From Escherichia phage mobillu: 64,000 nucleotides of DNA. The position numbers and the translations under genes were made by a program. Under the pieces are notes generated by a model, which was not told where the DNA came from, ran no database searches, and worked only from the letters and a program-made list of their open reading frames with translations. The stretch lies in the sequence record MN850622.1. One strand, 5' to 3'. Position 1 is the first letter of the stretch. Each line of letters opens with the position of its first letter. Shown one piece after another: positions 37,932 through 44,137 of this stretch.

Positions 37932-38111
37932 ATGTCACGTAAAGAAAAAATTTCTAAGTTAATGTTTTTGATTGAAGAGTACGCTAATGCGGTATCTGAT
38001 TGGGAAAATGCTCATGGTTGCGAAGATGGAGACATCGACATTAACAGAGCTATGAAAAAGATGGCTGACGCCCACACCGAATTGCAAATGTATGTTAACG
38101 AGATTATGTGA
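37932..38111 (+). CDS. hypothetical protein
   Basis: ATG MSRKEKISKLMFL... after GAGGAGAA. Confidence 0.5.
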   Translation: MSRKEKISKLMFLIEEYANAVSDWENAHGCEDGDIDINRAMKKMADAHTELQMYVNEIM

Positions 38112-38118
38112 GGATATT

Positions 38119-38325
38119 ATGCTTTACGATTATACTGGAAAATCTGAAGACGGTGTACTTGAGCTTTTACCTGAAAGCGCTGAAGATGATGATATGGTGG
38201 TGATGTTTTGTAAAAATGGACCTGGGGATAAGGGATGGATTTATCTTCGTCAAGAAAATGACTTAATTGTTTTGGACCCTAAACAAGTTGAAGAACTTTA
38301 TCAACATTTAAAACACAATCGGTAG
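38119..38325 (+). CDS. hypothetical acidic protein
   Basis: ATG MLYDYTGKSEDG... after GTGAGGA. Confidence 0.5.
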   Translation: MLYDYTGKSEDGVLELLPESAEDDDMVVMFCKNGPGDKGWIYLRQENDLIVLDPKQVEELYQHLKHNR

Positions 38326-38363
38326 TTTACATCTTGGTAGGACTATGTTATAGTAGTCCTATC
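38325..38363 (+). promoter_or_regulatory. PeSL-like early promoter
   Basis: GTTTACA, TATAGT, inverted repeat GGTAGGACTA/TAGTCCTATC. Confidence 0.6.
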
Positions 38364-38382
38364 AAAACAAACGGAGAACAAA

Positions 38383-38493
38383 ATGAAACTTTTGCTTATC
38401 GCTTATGTTGTAGTACAATACAATTATCCGATGTTTACTTATAACATGGTAAACGGCATAGTGAATCTTATTGAAACGAGTATGGTAAAATGA
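38383..38493 (+). CDS. very small hydrophobic peptide (36 aa)
   Basis: ATG after ACGGAGAA; MKLLLIAYVVVQYNYPMFTY...; below track cutoff. Confidence 0.3.
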   Translation: MKLLLIAYVVVQYNYPMFTYNMVNGIVNLIETSMVK

Positions 38494-38669
38494 CCCGTGA
38501 ACAAGCTAATAAATTGATGGACCTTATCCGTGACTTACGTGAAGCCGATTCAGATTTGAATGATGTAGCTTATCATGCGGTAAATGATAACGAAGACTTT
38601 TATGAAAATCAGGTTGATGCTTGTCTGAATGATTTGGTGAATTTTGTTGAAACTTTAATTGGTGAATAA
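38490..38669 (+). CDS. small acidic protein (59 aa)
   Basis: ATGA overlap; MTREQANKLMDLIRDLREADSDLNDVAYH... Confidence 0.45.
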   Translation: MTREQANKLMDLIRDLREADSDLNDVAYHAVNDNEDFYENQVDACLNDLVNFVETLIGE

Positions 38670-38670
38670 T

Positions 38671-39201
38671 ATGAAAACTGTAATTGAAACAACCGAGTTG
38701 TTTGGCGATTTATGTATCGAAAAACGTGGTTATGCTTACGTTCTGACACAAGAAGATGATGCTGTTACTATTCTTCCTATGGAACTGGACAAGATTTTGA
38801 AACTCAATCCGCCCGGCCATGCATCTGTAATTAACATTGATGAAGACCTTCAAGTTCGTTTTTATCACGGTCTTTATAGTGGGGTTAATATCGAAACAGA
38901 AGATGAATGCCTTTCTATCAATAATTGGAAAACATTCGTCACTAAGGTGAAAGAATTCATAGAATCTGAAACTGCCAAAAAGGCCAAACTTCAATGGGCT
39001 AAATGCCGTAATGCTTTTATTACAAATCAGGACCACCCTGACTATACAACAGTCCTAGGCGTTAATCCTTCTTATGAAGACGGTGATGTCGTAGTTATTC
39101 GCCAAATTGATGACCTTCGTCAGCATATCATTACATTAGACAAAGATGAAGCAGTTGCTCTTAAAGCTTATCTCGATTCTATTATCCCAACTTTGAAATA
39201 A
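38671..39201 (+). CDS. hypothetical protein
   Basis: 176 aa from ATG MKTVIETTELFGDL... Confidence 0.6.
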   Translation: MKTVIETTELFGDLCIEKRGYAYVLTQEDDAVTILPMELDKILKLNPPGHASVINIDEDLQVRFYHGLYSGVNIETEDECLSINNWKTFVTKVKEFIESETAKKAKLQWAKCRNAFITNQDHPDYTTVLGVNPSYEDGDVVVIRQIDDLRQHIITLDKDEAVALKAYLDSIIPTLK

Positions 39202-39210
39202 GGAATTATT

Positions 39211-39684
39211 ATGATTATCAATGAAAACTCTTGGCACTTTAAAATTTATGCCGCGTTCAATAGTACATGGAATCGCCCGAAAACGTTGTGTGCTTATTTT
39301 TGGAAAACGTTAATCCCGGTATTGGCTGTTTCAATTATTGGATTTGCGATTTTAGCAGCAGTCACAATTATTGGCCAGGAAATTTTAACTAAATTCTTTG
39401 TTTTTAGCAGTCTATGGACATTAGTTCCGGCCTCAATTGGCGTAGGCATTTTAATGGTAGCAGTCATGGCTTTTATTGCTACCGGGTTGGTAATTGGTCC
39501 GTCTTGGTTGTTAGACAAATATAACGACAGAAAATATTATAAAGAAATTGAGTTCATTGCACAAAACCAAGAACGAATTAAAAATGGACTTGAACCTATT
39601 GAACGTAAGAAATCATTAATAGGTGAATACCTTAAAGCTCGTAAAGAAAAAGTCTGTCCTACTCTTGAATATAAGGCTAAATGA
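39211..39684 (+). CDS. membrane protein (3-4 predicted TM helices)
   Basis: 157 aa with long hydrophobic stretches; stop overlaps next ATG. Confidence 0.6.
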   Translation: MIINENSWHFKIYAAFNSTWNRPKTLCAYFWKTLIPVLAVSIIGFAILAAVTIIGQEILTKFFVFSSLWTLVPASIGVGILMVAVMAFIATGLVIGPSWLLDKYNDRKYYKEIEFIAQNQERIKNGLEPIERKKSLIGEYLKARKEKVCPTLEYKAK

Positions 39685-40670
39685 TGAAAACGATTGTTAA
39701 GGCTTACTTTGGTAGCCACCTTTATGGAACGTCTACTCCTGAATCTGACGTCGATTTTAAAGAAATTTATGTCCCTCATGCTCGTGATATCTTGACCGGT
39801 AACGTTAAAGAACACATGAGCAAGAACACGAATAACACATCTTCTAAGAACACAAAAGACGACGTGGACCATGAGTTGTATAGTCTCAAATATTTCTTTA
39901 AACTAGCTGCGGATGGTGAAACCGTCGCATTAGATATGCTTCACACTCCACAAAGTCTAGTAGTTAAATCTGATTTGCCTGATGTATGGAAGTATATTCA
40001 AGATAACAGGTCTCGTTTCTATACCACTAACATGAAATCTTATTTAGGGTATGTCCGTAAGCAAGCTTCTAAATACGGTGTCAAGGGTTCTCGACTGGCT
40101 GTTCTTCGTCAAGCCCTTAAACGTTCTAATGAATGGGGACAATACTTTGATAATGGTGCAGTAATTCGTTTATCACATATGAAGAATGTTCTGCCTGTAG
40201 GTGAATTTGCTTCATGGGTTGAAACCGAAAACGAGAAAACAGGTAAGCAAACATTCTATAATCTGTTAGACCGTAAATTCCAAGACACATTAACCAATAA
40301 AGAGTTCAATGCCATCCTGGTTAAACTGGAAGAGAACTATGGTGAACGTGCTCGTAAGGCAGAAGCCAACGAAGGTATTGACTGGAAAGCATTGAGTCAT
40401 GCATGTCGTGGTGGACTTCAACTATTGGAAATTTACAAAACCGGCGACCTGGTTTACCCACTTCAGGATGCTCCATTTATTCTCGATGTTAAGCTTGGTA
40501 AACATACGTTTAAAACTGTACAAGAATTCCTAGAAGATATCGTTGACCAAGTTGAACATGCGTCAGAACAAGCCGCTAAGAACGGTATGCAACAAAAAGT
40601 AGATATGAGTTTCTGGGATGATTTCCTTGAGCAAGTCTATCTCGAAAATCATAATTCTTACTATAAATAA
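39681..40670 (+). CDS. Pol-beta superfamily nucleotidyltransferase
   Basis: 329 aa; N-terminal FGSHLYGTSTPESDVDF fits G-S-x(9-13)-D-x-D NTase signature; later acidic residue (ALDML). Confidence 0.7.
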   Translation: MMKTIVKAYFGSHLYGTSTPESDVDFKEIYVPHARDILTGNVKEHMSKNTNNTSSKNTKDDVDHELYSLKYFFKLAADGETVALDMLHTPQSLVVKSDLPDVWKYIQDNRSRFYTTNMKSYLGYVRKQASKYGVKGSRLAVLRQALKRSNEWGQYFDNGAVIRLSHMKNVLPVGEFASWVETENEKTGKQTFYNLLDRKFQDTLTNKEFNAILVKLEENYGERARKAEANEGIDWKALSHACRGGLQLLEIYKTGDLVYPLQDAPFILDVKLGKHTFKTVQEFLEDIVDQVEHASEQAAKNGMQQKVDMSFWDDFLEQVYLENHNSYYK

Positions 40671-40701
40671 ATAGATAAATAACCATTAACTTGAGGTAAA
40701 T

Positions 40702-40968
40702 ATGAAAAAATTAGTAATTGGTTTATTCGCTGTAATGATGGCATTCTCTGTTGGTGCTACCACGGGCGCAGGAGCTGATGGTAACCAGTCTTCTGGGCCT
40801 TCTAACGGTTCGGTAAATGCATCACATTCTCAGGGTATTGAGAATATCAAATCAAGCTATATTAATAGCACGGCCGGACAAGCAACTGAAGCATGGTCAA
40901 AGGGTCGAGTAGTTACTCGCTCTGTATTCTGTGATATGCCTAATTATGTTGCTAAGTGTGATAAGTAA
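40702..40968 (+). CDS. small secreted protein
   Basis: Signal peptide MKKLVIGLFAVMMAFSVGA; Gly/Ser-rich mature part. Confidence 0.6.
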   Translation: MKKLVIGLFAVMMAFSVGATTGAGADGNQSSGPSNGSVNASHSQGIENIKSSYINSTAGQATEAWSKGRVVTRSVFCDMPNYVAKCDK

Positions 40969-40972
40969 ATGT

Positions 40973-40993
40973 GGGGACCTTCGGGTCCCTTTA
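40973..40993 (+). terminator. intrinsic terminator
   Basis: GGGACC-TTCG-GGTCCC then TTTA. Confidence 0.65.
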
Positions 40994-41019
40994 GGGGGTT
41001 AAAATATTTTTAAAAAGTA

Positions 41020-41058
41020 GTGTACATGCTTTTAGGATATGATACTATAGACCTATCG
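41020..41058 (+). promoter_or_regulatory. PeSL-like early promoter
   Basis: TGTACA, TACTAT, inverted repeat around -10; leader nearly identical to the 19948 and 28050 leaders. Confidence 0.6.
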
Positions 41059-41086
41059 AAACGAAATGAGTAAATTGGAGAATAAA

Positions 41087-42067
41087 ATGTTCAACGTTCA
41101 AATCAAAAAAGGTATCTATCGTAATAACGAAATCTCTGGTTCTTATGTTGCCACAAAGACCTGGTTCCCGGCAAAGCTTAATCCTGAATGTTCCCACTTA
41201 GGTGATGGTAAAATTTTCGTTATGATTGATGGATCTGAACGTGGAGTATGGGTCTTCAAATCAGACATCGTAATGGAAGGAGTTGAGACGTCACCAGTTG
41301 CAGTTGTTGAAAGCACTGAAGATATGAAAACTCGTATCAACAAACGCTTTAAAGTAATGAACATGATGACGAATGGCATTATCGATGGCAAAATTCGTTC
41401 ACTCATTATTTCAGGTGCAGCTGGTATTGGTAAGACGTATTCTCTGGATAAAGCACTTAATAATGCTAATGATAATGGTTTCATCAAATACAAAAGCATT
41501 AATGGTAAAATCTCTGGTATTGACCTTTACGAACAACTTTGGCTCAACCGTGATGCAGACAGCGTTCTCTTAATCGATGACGTTGACGTATTCTCAGATA
41601 TGGACATCCTGAACCTTCTTAAAGCAGCATTAGATACCGGAGATAAACGCAAAGTTTGTTGGAGCACTGCGTCATCTTATCTCGAGGATAAGGGTATTGA
41701 TAAAGAATTTGAGTTTGAAGGTACTATCGTTTTCATTACAAACGTTGATATCGATAAAGAGTTAGAACGGGGTTCGAAACTTGCTCCACACCTTCAAGCT
41801 TTAGTATCTCGTTCAGTGTATCTCGACCTTGGAGTACACTCTAATGAAGAGATTATGGTTCGAGTTGAAGATGTAATATTATCTACTGACATGATGCAGA
41901 AACGTGGTCTGACGGATGCAGAAACGTATAAAGCATTGTCCTGGATGAAGGCTAACGTATCTCGTCTTCGCAATGTATCATTACGTACGGCTCTTTATGT
42001 AGCAGATTTTATTTCAACTGATAAAGATGGTTGGGAAGAAATCTCGGAAGTTACTTTACTGAAATAA
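41087..42067 (+). CDS. AAA+/P-loop ATPase
   Basis: Walker A GAAGIGKTY and Walker B VLLIDDVD; about 100-aa N-terminal domain. Confidence 0.7.
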   Translation: MFNVQIKKGIYRNNEISGSYVATKTWFPAKLNPECSHLGDGKIFVMIDGSERGVWVFKSDIVMEGVETSPVAVVESTEDMKTRINKRFKVMNMMTNGIIDGKIRSLIISGAAGIGKTYSLDKALNNANDNGFIKYKSINGKISGIDLYEQLWLNRDADSVLLIDDVDVFSDMDILNLLKAALDTGDKRKVCWSTASSYLEDKGIDKEFEFEGTIVFITNVDIDKELERGSKLAPHLQALVSRSVYLDLGVHSNEEIMVRVEDVILSTDMMQKRGLTDAETYKALSWMKANVSRLRNVSLRTALYVADFISTDKDGWEEISEVTLLK

Positions 42068-42205
42068 GCTTATAGGAAGTTCTGAGGTAACAAAAGCCAT
42101 AAAGATGAATAATCATATGGCTTACCTCAAAGAAGGACACCAGGAACCTACTGAGGGCATAGAAATATTTAAAAATAATGATGTACAAATCAAAGAGGAT
42201 ATGTT

Positions 42206-42493
42206 ATGGATTTTATGCAAAAAATTAAAGCCGCAGTCGAACTCTATGCTCATCGTATGGTTAGTTCTACAATGCAATATAGCGAGGAGGTTCGCCAGGA
42301 CTCTTCCTTGAAAGGAAAAACTAAAGCCTTAATTACCTTAGATCGTTTGCAAAAGAATGCCATAGAGATGCTCCAGTACGACAAGGGTGTATATAAGAAA
42401 GAACAGGAAGAGAAACTTAAATCTGAAAAATTAAAGAAAATCCCGAAGTCGGTTTGGTTCAGTGGAAAAAATACCGAAAAAAGTTTCTTTTAG
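42206..42493 (+). CDS. hypothetical protein
   Basis: 95 aa after AGAGGA SD. Confidence 0.5.
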   Translation: MDFMQKIKAAVELYAHRMVSSTMQYSEEVRQDSSLKGKTKALITLDRLQKNAIEMLQYDKGVYKKEQEEKLKSEKLKKIPKSVWFSGKNTEKSFF

Positions 42494-42495
42494 TT

Positions 42496-42540
42496 GTTTA
42501 CAAGGTCTATGGTTATGTTATTATAGACCTATCAACTACT
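42496..42540 (+). promoter_or_regulatory. PeSL-like early promoter
   Basis: GTTTACA, 17 bp, TATTAT, inverted repeat GGTCTAT/ATAGACC. Confidence 0.55.
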
Positions 42541-42551
42541 GGAGGTAAAAC

Positions 42552-43079
42552 ATGAACGCTAAAGATATTTTCAACCTGGTGAATTATAACGACGGTAAAT
42601 TTAAATCTGAAGCACAAAGCAAGTTCTTTAATGACGTTGCTTATGGTAACGAGATTACCGTGGACGGAGGTCAGATTTTCAAATCTCGCTGGAATTGGAT
42701 TGTTATCATCGATTCAGTTGGAATTGTGGAAGTCTACAAAAACACTAACAAAAAACGTACATTATTCTGGTCTCGTGAAACTAACGAGCAGTACAAAAAG
42801 GATAAAGCATCTCGTTTATCCAAAGTAACCCAGGAAGATATCGAGTTTATCAAGAAAGATATCGAGATGTACGAAAATTTAATTGCTGAAGACCAGGCAG
42901 TACTCGATAAGTTTGATGAAATTAAAGCTTCTCGTGAAATCCCTGACTTCATGAAAGAAACAGTAAACGAACGATACGCTCTCACTTCAGAACGTATTGC
43001 AAACTATACAAAACAGAAAGCAGAACGTATTAGTACTCTTCGGAAATTTGAAGAACGTTTAAAGACGGTTCACGCATAA
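42552..43079 (+). CDS. hypothetical protein with C-terminal coiled coil
   Basis: 175 aa after GGAGG SD. Confidence 0.6.
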   Translation: MNAKDIFNLVNYNDGKFKSEAQSKFFNDVAYGNEITVDGGQIFKSRWNWIVIIDSVGIVEVYKNTNKKRTLFWSRETNEQYKKDKASRLSKVTQEDIEFIKKDIEMYENLIAEDQAVLDKFDEIKASREIPDFMKETVNERYALTSERIANYTKQKAERISTLRKFEERLKTVHA

Positions 43080-43080
43080 A

Positions 43081-43106
43081 CGCTTTACCCAAGGACGGGT
43101 TATAAT
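43081..43106 (+). promoter_or_regulatory. middle-promoter-like (MotA-box-like CGCTTTA + TATAAT)
   Basis: GCTTTA core 13 bp upstream of TATAAT; same CATAAACGCTTTA context as 59205. Confidence 0.45.
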
Positions 43107-43141
43107 GGTTTTGAGTTCCAATTCAATCTGAGGAAATAGTT

Positions 43142-44137
43142 ATGAGCATTACATCTGATGCGGTAAAACATGAAATTAACGGTTTATGTGCTTCACAGAT
43201 TAAAGTGTGGTTTAAAGACCATAACGATCGCAGAGCACTTAATTATGAACAAATTGCTATCCAAGTTCATCAATTACTGGTTAGTAAATTTGATTTTCAT
43301 ATGCCGTCTGAAATCTATACTAATCTGCCGCGAGCACTTATTAAAGCGTGTAAAGGTTATGGAAAATCAATGGCTGATGGAATCTTCAGCGCGCTGAATA
43401 AACTTAACGTTCTGTCGATGATTAACTCTAACAACATCCTGCGTAATCTAGGACGTACTGATTTGTTCGGCCGTGAACAGTGTAAAATGCCTTTGAAATG
43501 GATTGTTGCTCATCTTAACGAGAACCAAACACGTTTTATGGCCGTAACAGCACGCTTACAAATGGGCCTAGATCGTCAGATGAACTTTAAAACTCATCCA
43601 CGTTATTCAGGTTCAACTGACTTTTATAAATGTGAGCTTCAAAAGGTCGGTGGCAAAACCGTCTTAGTAGTTCGTGTAACGTTTGAAGGACGACGTCAAG
43701 GATATTTTGACATAATCGGCTCTGGACTTAAACATTGTGGATTTATCGACGAAGTTGATATCAAGCGAGACGGCGTTGGATACCGTATTGGGTATGTTTG
43801 TACTCTTAAAGAAGAGATTTCAGGACCAGCTCCAGGACTAAAAGACGTTAGATATAAAGACGAGCTCGTTGAAGAAATAAAAGAAGTTGAATATGATATC
43901 AACCAAGAAGATGCTCTTAAAGACCTTATTGATGAACTGAACCAAGACGTTATTCCGGTTCAGAAATTTGAATCAAAACATGCTGAGCAAATCAAATACT
44001 TTGAAGCTTTGATTAACGAACTTAATGTAACTATTCAACAGACTGACGATGAAATCTCACGATTAGCAGGCTTAAACGGTAAAAATAAAACAGAACGAGC
44101 TAATCTTATTCAAGTAGTAAAACTTCTTAAGGAATGA
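43142..44137 (+). CDS. hypothetical protein (about 330 aa, C-terminal coiled coil)
   Basis: ATG after GAGG; first of three tandem, similarly sized genes. Confidence 0.65.
   Translation: MSITSDAVKHEINGLCASQIKVWFKDHNDRRALNYEQIAIQVHQLLVSKFDFHMPSEIYTNLPRALIKACKGYGKSMADGIFSALNKLNVLSMINSNNILRNLGRTDLFGREQCKMPLKWIVAHLNENQTRFMAVTARLQMGLDRQMNFKTHPRYSGSTDFYKCELQKVGGKTVLVVRVTFEGRRQGYFDIIGSGLKHCGFIDEVDIKRDGVGYRIGYVCTLKEEISGPAPGLKDVRYKDELVEEIKEVEYDINQEDALKDLIDELNQDVIPVQKFESKHAEQIKYFEALINELNVTIQQTDDEISRLAGLNGKNKTERANLIQVVKLLKE

Follow-up and report, generated by a model that had tools for sequence, protein, structure and literature searches.

The nrdC.11 orthologue of Escherichia phage mobillu: a long-form RlaP nucleotidyltransferase with a probable role in RNA repair

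INTRODUCTION

The nucleotidyltransferases of the RlaP family reportedly received that name from Burroughs and Aravind in 2016. The corresponding Pfam family (PF10127) owes the name RlaP to its linkage with RNA ligases, and its members were predicted to restore the nucleotides lost from cleaved RNAs prior to ligation, for example after the action of RloC (PMC7824862). According to a preprint of December 2025, PfRlaP and PaRlaP (from P. fluorescens and P. aeruginosa, respectively) add one or two nucleoside monophosphates to the 3′-OH of RNA, preferring the 5′ half of a nicked tRNA and working best with Mn2+, and leave DNA and protein unmodified; these Pseudomonas enzymes partially rescued the aminoacylation of a tRNA lacking one anticodon-loop nucleotide, and the same work places NrdC.11 of phage T4 in the RlaP Pfam family, in cluster 5 of a similarity network (PMC12776372). 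The RefSeq annotation of T4 NrdC.11 (NP_049709) is 'nucleotidyltransferase'. An earlier genome comparison assigned the nrdC.11 orthologues to the COG3541 nucleotidyltransferase domain and those of nrdC.10 to the AAA ATPases, the former being present in six of six genomes and the latter in three of six (Nolan et al. 2006, PMC1524935). T4 also possesses an RNA-repair system (Pnkp/PseT and Rnl1, together with Rnl2) that counters the PrrC anticodon nuclease. A different pairing, that of a nucleotidyltransferase with a membrane ion channel, constitutes the Hailong system (PMC13276650). Here we analyse an nrdC.11 orthologue of Escherichia phage mobillu, and the genes around it, in a 64,000-nt stretch of sequence record MN850622.1 (this whole stretch is referred to as the window).

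RESULTS

The nucleotidyltransferase is an orthologue of T4 NrdC.11

The features of the nucleotidyltransferase gene used in the analysis were the following:

39684..40670 (alternative ATG at 39681), + strand: nucleotidyltransferase of 328 residues, orthologue of T4 NrdC.11, long-form RlaP (sequence and model)
39711..39755, + strand: catalytic motif G10-S11 ... D22-V-D24, corresponding to the hG[GS] and [DE]h[DE]h motifs of the Pol-beta superfamily (alignment)
39867..39869, + strand: D62, likely third catalytic carboxylate, in the DVD that starts strand 61-67 (alignment and model)

The protein is the ordinary, widely conserved product of T4 nrdC.11, a member of the RlaP family and already known as such. 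It is 78% identical to T4 NrdC.11 over its full length (336 alignment columns). An earlier note on this DNA had not been able to match it to a T4 protein; it is in fact a plain orthologue of NrdC.11, with homologues of NrdC.10 and MobD.1/Y05I as neighbours. The note had allowed that it might turn out to be a conserved T4 nrdC.x protein of known function: conserved it is, and a function is known for the family, not for the T4-type protein. In Pfam it scored 49.5 bits (cut-off 23, E = 5.9e-13) for PF10127 (RlaP, 'RNA repair pathway DNA polymerase beta family'), and it matched phrog_388 ('nucleotidyltransferase') at 9e-126. The family includes 3274 representatives at the 50% identity level, 750 of them with E<1e-30; the best 150 representatives listed were mostly full-length matches, and PF10127 was annotated in all 120 close homologues among the matches listed.

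The N-terminus of the open reading frame (ORF) reads MMKTIVKAYFGSHLYGTSTPESDVDF, in which the motif previously described (G-S, nine residues, S-D-V-D-F) is found exactly. The start proposed in the note (39681) lies one codon upstream of that used in T4 and in most database entries (MKT..., 39684). The TGA of the upstream membrane protein gene (39682-39684) overlaps both candidate ATGs (ATGATGA), so translational coupling of the two genes, as the note had proposed, is plausible whichever start is used. Across 78 aligned sequences that share 34-52% identity with the query, the invariant residues were G10, S11, S21, D22, D24, D62, Y131, R222, K235 and R242; D84 and H239 were nearly so. When the third catalytic acidic residue was sought, D62 emerged: it is invariant, begins strand 61-67 and aligns in hhalign with a conserved Asp (...ELD...) of a canonical RlaP, and is the probable third metal ligand.

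The Pol-beta assignment made in the note was borne out, while its 'CD-NTase-type' label was not, since the motif is generic to the Pol-beta superfamily. No match to a CD-NTase, OAS, CCA-adding enzyme or defence system was obtained in Pfam (E<=1), NCBIfam (E<=0.1) or PADLOC (E<=0.1). NTP_transf_2 (13.6 bits, cut-off 21) and the NCBIfam MntA model (13.3 bits, cut-off 60) stayed below threshold, NCBIfam gave nothing meaningful, and the only PADLOC match was one to SspF, at chance level and to the ATPase. In the Protein Data Bank (PDB), sequence searches with the single protein and with the family profile returned only chance-level matches for the nucleotidyltransferase.

The AlphaFold model (predicted local distance difference test score, pLDDT, 94.7) has residues 1-112 in an N-terminal alpha/beta domain, 118-154 in a long helix and 176-200 in a beta-hairpin insert; the C-terminal domain is helical, and a final helix ends the chain. 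This predicted layout agrees with the published description of the PfRlaP crystal structure, an N-terminal nucleotidyltransferase domain and a helical C-terminal one onto which the last helix packs back (PMC12776372). The best structural matches were Pol-beta nucleotidyltransferases, with HEPN-like helical proteins matching the C-terminal part. Hailong HalB (PDB 9dbh) and the kanamycin nucleotidyltransferase ANT(4′) (1kny) were the best structural neighbours; both share the Pol-beta core with the model, and ANT(4′) also has a helical C-terminal domain. No cGAS/DncV-type structure was among the matches. The relationship to cGAS, DncV or OAS that the note had proposed to check found no match by profiles or by structure, and the protein is not a cGAS/DncV-type enzyme.

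The long RlaP in RNA-repair operons

The RNA-ligase neighbourhood that gave RlaP its name is absent at the present locus and present for the subfamily, both in other viral loci and in bacterial ones (loci are cited below as L followed by a number). On the viral contig L066, genes for Rnl1 (PF09511), ThyX, a metallophosphoesterase and a PHROG 944-type membrane protein accompany that of an AAA_33 kinase, and the kinase gene is overlapped by the gene for an RlaP sharing 46% identity with the window protein. An RNA ligase gene and a PseT-like gene lie downstream of RlaP in L085, and an Rnl2-like gene near it in L074. A bacterial scan, using one genome per prokaryotic species, yielded 161 loci with full-length homologues, of which 80 (33-52% identical) were kept; 79 of these provided a neighbour set of 80 same-strand ORFs of at least 100 amino acids. 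This set contained 18 canonical full-length RlaPs, five AAA_33 proteins, four PNKP_ligase proteins (bacterial Pnkp), four Metallophos proteins, two RtcA, one RtcB, one Rnl1 and two Ro60-vWA proteins. The long T4-type RlaP is a paralogue that resides in operons for RNA repair, frequently as the tandem partner of the canonical form.

In bacteria, the long RlaP gene is very often followed by one for a canonical full-length RlaP (PF10127, E down to 1e-81), the stop and start codons overlapping (L142, L145, L150, L156, L160, L161, L163, L169, L170, L180, L185, L189, L195, L201, L209, L211, L213 and L216). At some of these loci a Pnkp of ∼850 amino acids is encoded upstream. T4-like phages have the long RlaP alone, with no canonical one. 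The two forms look like a fixed pair in bacteria, and their tandem arrangement, with Pnkp beside it, suggests that they might have non-redundant roles. This arrangement provides a lead of its own, second to the one described next.

A membrane protein gene associated with several RNA-repair enzymes

The gene that overlaps the start of the nucleotidyltransferase gene encodes a member of PHROG 944:

39211..39684, + strand: small membrane protein, PHROG 944, 157 residues (profile and alignment)

It matched phrog_944 (PHROG label 'membrane protein') at 3.1e-53 and was found by tblastn in 1295 phage records of many genera. The family is marked by NSWH...LCxYFWK, conserved in the N-terminal part, by a core of hydrophobic segments and by a basic tail at the C-terminus, YIKAKKxKxCPxIEF; W8, C27, Y29, K147 and C149 are invariant in the alignment, C27 and C149 being the invariant cysteines. 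Hydrophobic blocks at about residues 25-65 and 62-102 are consistent with two to four transmembrane helices; the membrane character claimed in the note is upheld. No mention of the PHROG 944 membrane protein was found in the literature searched.

The gene contexts of this family were diverse. In T4-like phages RlaP lies directly downstream, often with a 4-nt overlap. In Pakpunavirus the membrane gene is beside an Rnl1-type RNA ligase, followed by a polynucleotide-kinase-like P-loop kinase; in L066 Rnl1 is just upstream, with the kinase and RlaP downstream. A PNKP-type HAD phosphatase is directly downstream in L121, a 'Swiss-army-knife RNA repair' (SAK) HAD domain directly upstream in L127, and PF09414 RNA ligases occur within ∼0.4 and 1.1 kb in L129 and L132. 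The loci with such a link were the present one (39211-39684 of the window), L004, L066, L121, L125-L130, L132 and L135. No RNA-repair neighbour was seen in the Kuravirus-like and Aeromonas phage 65-like contexts or in L110, L115, L117, L118 and L133. In ICP1 the neighbours are a deoxynucleoside monophosphate (dNMP)-kinase-like protein and a pyrophosphohydrolase, with no RNA-repair gene. Two more contexts without a link to repair are those of L136, where the neighbour is an enzyme of the nicotinate phosphoribosyltransferase family, and L220, where it is a protein with a weak exoribonuclease-like match. A neighbour in L115 bearing the PHROG name 'DNA polymerase' was considered as an RlaP and discarded, being unrelated by the RlaP profile test. 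The contexts contributed by the protein database were one further T4-like case, two Kuravirus-like cases lacking any RNA-repair neighbour, and a case whose neighbour weakly resembles an Rv2179c-like exoribonuclease; since these are mixed, the association with RNA repair is partial and not universal.

Overall, an RNA-repair neighbour was present in about seven of 17 distinct phage contexts. This would be well above chance if, as a rough guess, ∼10% of phage genes taken at random had an RNA-repair gene no more than two genes away; the lineages are not fully independent. In Pakpunavirus, Kuravirus, ICP1 and others the membrane gene stands without RlaP, and it is absent from ∼35 of 79 RlaP loci; an obligate enzyme-membrane pair was therefore rejected, each gene occurring without the other. 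Two copies of the membrane gene flank RlaP in contig L064/L123 and stand in tandem upstream of it in L054.

It is possible, albeit doubtful, that the PHROG 944 protein is a dedicated component of phage RNA repair (an anchor, sensor or regulator) working with whichever end-processing enzyme is present; its partners may include RlaP, Rnl1, a PF09414 ligase, polynucleotide kinase, and PNKP-type or SAK-type HAD phosphatases. If that were true, phage RNA repair during infection would be membrane-associated. The new lead here is a widespread phage membrane protein linked, apparently non-randomly, to several different RNA-repair enzymes.

The surrounding genes

The source phage is a T4-like Mosigvirus (Straboviridae, Tevenvirinae). 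A 3.9-kb stretch showed 98.7% identity to Escherichia phage APCEc01 and other Mosigvirus, and 737 phage records were matched. The genes follow the order of the T4 tk-rI-mobD-nrdC region, in reversed orientation: the succession tk-rI-mobD.x-nrdC.11-nrdC.10-nrdC.9-nrdC.8 is conserved with T4, the NrdC.9 and NrdC.8 homologues being encoded next downstream of the NrdC.10 homologue. The same-strand run comprises ORFs at 38671-39201 (176 amino acids), 39211-39684 (157), 39681 or 39684-40670 (329 or 328), 40702-40968 (88) and 41066 or 41087-42067 (333 or 326). All the ORFs listed in the note were present where it had placed them, and each ORF of the region has hundreds to thousands of homologues, so these are genuine genes and not chance ORFs. 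The placing of an AAA+ ATPase downstream of the nucleotidyltransferase, and the tight coupling of the membrane protein to the latter, also hold (ORF coordinates, ATGATGA). An Rfam scan of 38000-43500 gave a single chance match. The remaining features of the region are:

38671..39201, + strand: MobD.1/Y05I homologue, 176 residues, first gene of the tightly packed run (Pfam and comparison with T4)
40702..40968, + strand: 88-residue protein whose N-terminus resembles a signal peptide; accessory insert separating the nrdC.11 and nrdC.10 homologues (phrog_2243, 2.1e-38)
40973..40990, + strand: hairpin GGGGACC-UUCG-GGUCCC, weak terminator candidate (folding and terminator scan, which flagged an overlapping site)
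41020..41048, + strand: candidate T4-early-like promoter, GTGTAC-17 nt-TACTAT with an A-tract before it (read by eye)
41087..42067, + strand: AAA+ ATPase, T4 NrdC.10 orthologue, 326 residues, with an N-terminal beta domain (1-64) followed by the AAA+ core and lid
41411..41437, + strand: Walker A of NrdC.10 (S109-GAAGIGK-T117), with G110, G113, G115 and K116 invariant, jumbo-phage homologues included
41576..41587, + strand: Walker B of NrdC.10 (D164-D165-V-D167; LLIDDVD), with D164, D165 and D167 invariant

The 176-residue protein matched Pfam T4_y05I_N (3.5e-41) and T4_y05I_C (7.5e-20), and was 47% identical to T4 MobD.1 in a pairwise comparison; its gene (end 39201) is separated from the membrane gene (start 39211) by a 9-nt gap containing AAGGA. 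Just before it, a 59-residue ORF (38490-38669 of the window) matched Pfam DUF7438 (1.9e-14) and phrog_4859, whose label, 'helicase loader', looks doubtful given so small a protein. A search of the T4 nrdC-tk region (44-62 kb), in which NrdC.11 is retained, did not reveal the membrane gene, and T4 has the HNH homing endonuclease gene mobD in the place that the membrane gene occupies here. T4 mobD (L001:12430-13209) stands exactly at that site, and in one relative (contig L012/L101) the membrane gene, mobD and RlaP follow one another; it seems that T4 lost the membrane gene after, or together with, the insertion of mobD.

The secreted peptide proposed in the note is an 88-residue ORF with a hydrophobic, signal-like N-terminal segment. 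Its product ends in a C-x10-C motif and showed no similarity to T4 NrdC.9. The gene was found in only two of 79 related loci, T4 has no gene between nrdC.11 and nrdC.10, and the 88-residue gene looks like a recent accessory insert. As to the terminator that the note had placed after this gene, the hairpin at 40973-40990 does exist (7 bp, minimum free energy −13.9 kcal/mol), but its z-score of −1.1 is not unusual for its composition and only UUU follows it; terminator-like sites in the region numbered six, against 3.1 expected in the consensus scan, a small excess. The separate promoter claimed for the ATPase gene fared similarly: the consensus scan found none ahead of the gene, promoter-like sites being at chance level (16 versus 17 expected), and the candidate at 41020-41048, read by eye, falls below the threshold of the scan. 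A candidate GGAG precedes the ATG at 41087 by 8 nt.

The ATPase is 78% identical to T4 NrdC.10 and matched phrog_1250 at 1e-160. The AAA+/P-loop ATPase of the note was confirmed by its Walker A (GAAGIGKT), its Walker B (LLIDDVD) and a confident AAA+ fold: the AlphaFold model (pLDDT 90.1) matched 133 PDB chains at E<0.001, all AAA+ and led by ORC1/Cdc6, RFC, Hda, NtrC1, RuvB and NSF. The sensor-1 residue N219, together with R242 and R300, is invariant. None of its Pfam matches exceeded the gathering score, those to AAA_22 and AAA_16 included, and PDB sequence searches gave weak P-loop matches to RFC4, Cdc6 and mS29. NrdC.10 homologues occur in 1311 phage records, those of Vibrio phages and jumbo phages among them. 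The matches in jumbo phages (L087 and L088) are limited to the C-terminal three-quarters (query ∼74-326), the protein of RCIP0023 lacking the N-terminal domain; in the Vibrio phages D524 (L089) and D484 (L090) the gene lies among those for replication and nucleotide metabolism, with no RlaP nearby. A weak HTH_37 match covers residues 251-307. The Vibrio context, the jumbo-phage coverage and the HTH_37 match suggest that NrdC.10 is a DNA-related AAA+ protein. In many GenBank and UniRef entries, homologues of NrdC.10 and NrdC.11 bear the name 'thioredoxin', which appears to have been propagated from the gene names nrdC.10 and nrdC.11; a thioredoxin domain is absent from both proteins.

DISCUSSION

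A proposed role in RNA repair

The best explanation of the nucleotidyltransferase, and in our judgement a probable one, is that it is a two-domain RlaP with a Pol-beta fold, belonging to a longer, phage-type subfamily and adding nucleotides to RNA in the course of its repair. What was observed for NrdC.11 is its orthology, family membership, catalytic residues, fold and genomic associations; the substrate, reaction and biological trigger proposed for it come from the biochemistry of the family. NrdC.11 would use D22, D24 and D62, with a divalent metal, to add one or two untemplated nucleotides to the 3′-OH of a broken RNA. It would act preferentially on the 5′ half of a tRNA that a RloC-type host anticodon nuclease had cut and trimmed in the anticodon loop, and the phage Pnkp, Rnl1 and Rnl2, encoded elsewhere in the genome, would then rebuild the full-length tRNA. 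The enzyme would be an accessory counter-defence factor, dispensable in laboratory hosts, and the membrane protein, presumably co-translated with it, may localise or regulate repair. Among the options listed in the earlier note, tRNA repair is the best supported.

Several points weigh against this proposal. The characterised RlaPs belong to cluster 1a of the similarity network and NrdC.11 to cluster 5, and the use of a bacterial RlaP as an antidote to RloC is a proposal, not an in vivo result (PMC12776372). The PF10127 model aligns with the N-terminal half of the protein alone (residues 7-152 to model positions 23-148 of 249), hhalign aligned only ∼80 residues with a canonical RlaP, at 30% probability, and the C-terminal domain, with its predicted beta-hairpin insert, may serve a different substrate. 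The literature searched contained no activity or phenotype of NrdC.11 itself and no enzymology for the long phage-type subfamily. The block from nrdC.11 to mobD.3 is deletable, having been lost in a viable genome-reduced T4 (PMC9825161). Finally, the 64-kb window encodes neither an RNA ligase nor Pnkp, and in APCEc01, the nearest complete genome, Rnl1, Pnkp and Rnl2 are encoded ∼55-85 kb from the nucleotidyltransferase.

Alternative explanations

The enzyme might instead nucleotidylate a protein (as MNT or AMPylase-like enzymes do), a small molecule (as aminoglycoside nucleotidyltransferases do) or the 3′ ends of intact tRNAs (CCA-type repair or tagging). Among the structural neighbours of the model are kanamycin/aminoglycoside nucleotidyltransferases, MNT-HEPN pairs, DrrA and GlnE, the C-terminal domain resembles HEPN-like helical domains, and the C-terminal half of the protein lies outside the Pfam model. 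Yet the NTP_transf_2 and MntA scores are far below threshold, the bacterial RlaPs label RNA and not protein or DNA (PMC12776372), and the genomic company of the subfamily consists of enzymes that heal and seal RNA ends. We consider a substrate of this kind unlikely.

A second alternative would make MobD.1, the membrane protein, the nucleotidyltransferase and NrdC.10 a single module, in which the ATPase remodels or loads the repair enzyme. The order membrane gene-RlaP-NrdC.10 is kept in 34 of 79 loci in spite of variable inserts of 0.1-3.3 kb, and NrdC.10, at 57-82% identity, is better conserved than the nucleotidyltransferase of the same phages. Outside the T4 group, however, the module implied by the note finds no support: in D524 and D484 the NrdC.10 gene is flanked by those for dUTPase and a helicase, or by those for NrdAB and topoisomerase II, away from any RlaP, and within 5 kb of the jumbo-phage copies no gene is annotated as a nucleotidyltransferase or as one of RNA repair. 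Several T4-like phages have RlaP and no NrdC.10; nrdC.10 was present in three of six genomes compared earlier, against six of six for nrdC.11 (PMC1524935); a hairpin and a likely separate start signal stand between the two genes; and the nearest folds to NrdC.10 are those of AAA+ replication initiators and clamp loaders. A single module therefore has little probability. NrdC.10 is best read as a syntenic neighbour by descent and not as a demonstrated partner of the nucleotidyltransferase, the same being true of MobD.1, and the order of the membrane gene, RlaP and NrdC.10 in Tevenvirinae as inherited synteny.

That the locus encodes a second-messenger synthase or mimic, or a Hailong-like or anti-Hailong pair in which an oligonucleotide signal gates or neutralises a membrane effector, is very improbable: an enzyme with a membrane ion channel is indeed the layout of Hailong (PMC13276650), and the membrane protein is plausibly coupled in translation to the enzyme and has a strongly basic C-terminal tail, but the resemblance seen to HalB is confined to the generic Pol-beta core (14% identity, with similar scores for ANT(4′) and 3c18), a PDB search with the family profile (E<=1) returned no HalB sequence, PADLOC has no match for such a system, cGAS, DncV and OAS matches are missing, the pair is not obligate (the T4 region at 44-62 kb and ∼35 of 79 RlaP loci have the enzyme and no membrane gene), and the membrane gene is found beside RNA ligases, kinases or phosphatases with no RlaP at all. 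Both readings draw on the generic fold and the enzyme/membrane layout, and the distribution data contradict them.

Comparison with known systems

NrdC.10 shares its fold, Walker A and B motifs, sensor 1 and arginines with the initiator/clamp-loader clade (ORC1/Cdc6, RFC, Hda), and differs from it in having no family-specific match and in possessing a unique N-terminal beta domain, absent from the jumbo-phage homologues. The closest counterpart of the nucleotidyltransferase is T4 NrdC.11 (78% identity), with the same motifs and the same position between the mobD.1 and nrdC.10 homologues; the present phage differs from T4 in the membrane gene upstream and in the extra gene downstream, for the 88-residue secreted protein. 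The likeness to RlaP (PF10127) lies in the Pfam score, the GS/DxD/D set of residues, the predicted combination of an N-terminal nucleotidyltransferase domain with a C-terminal helical one, and relatives in RNA-repair operons. Compared with the characterised RlaPs, the protein is ∼70 residues longer, matches the Pfam model over half its length, falls in a separate cluster (5 rather than 1a) and carries the beta-hairpin insert.

NrdC.11 thus needs no new category, and a conserved T4 gene now has a concrete prediction attached to it, namely that nucleotides removed by RloC and other 'smart' anticodon nucleases would be restored before Pnkp and Rnl1 act. The T4 RNA-repair system has the same proposed purpose and is encoded by the same genome, its genes not being adjacent to nrdC.11 in T4-like genomes. 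The difference would be one of step: Pnkp, Rnl1 and Rnl2 heal and seal the ends, whereas NrdC.11 would first replace the nucleotides that had been lost. If confirmed in a T4-like phage, this would extend the arms race between PrrC and Pnkp-Rnl1 by one step.

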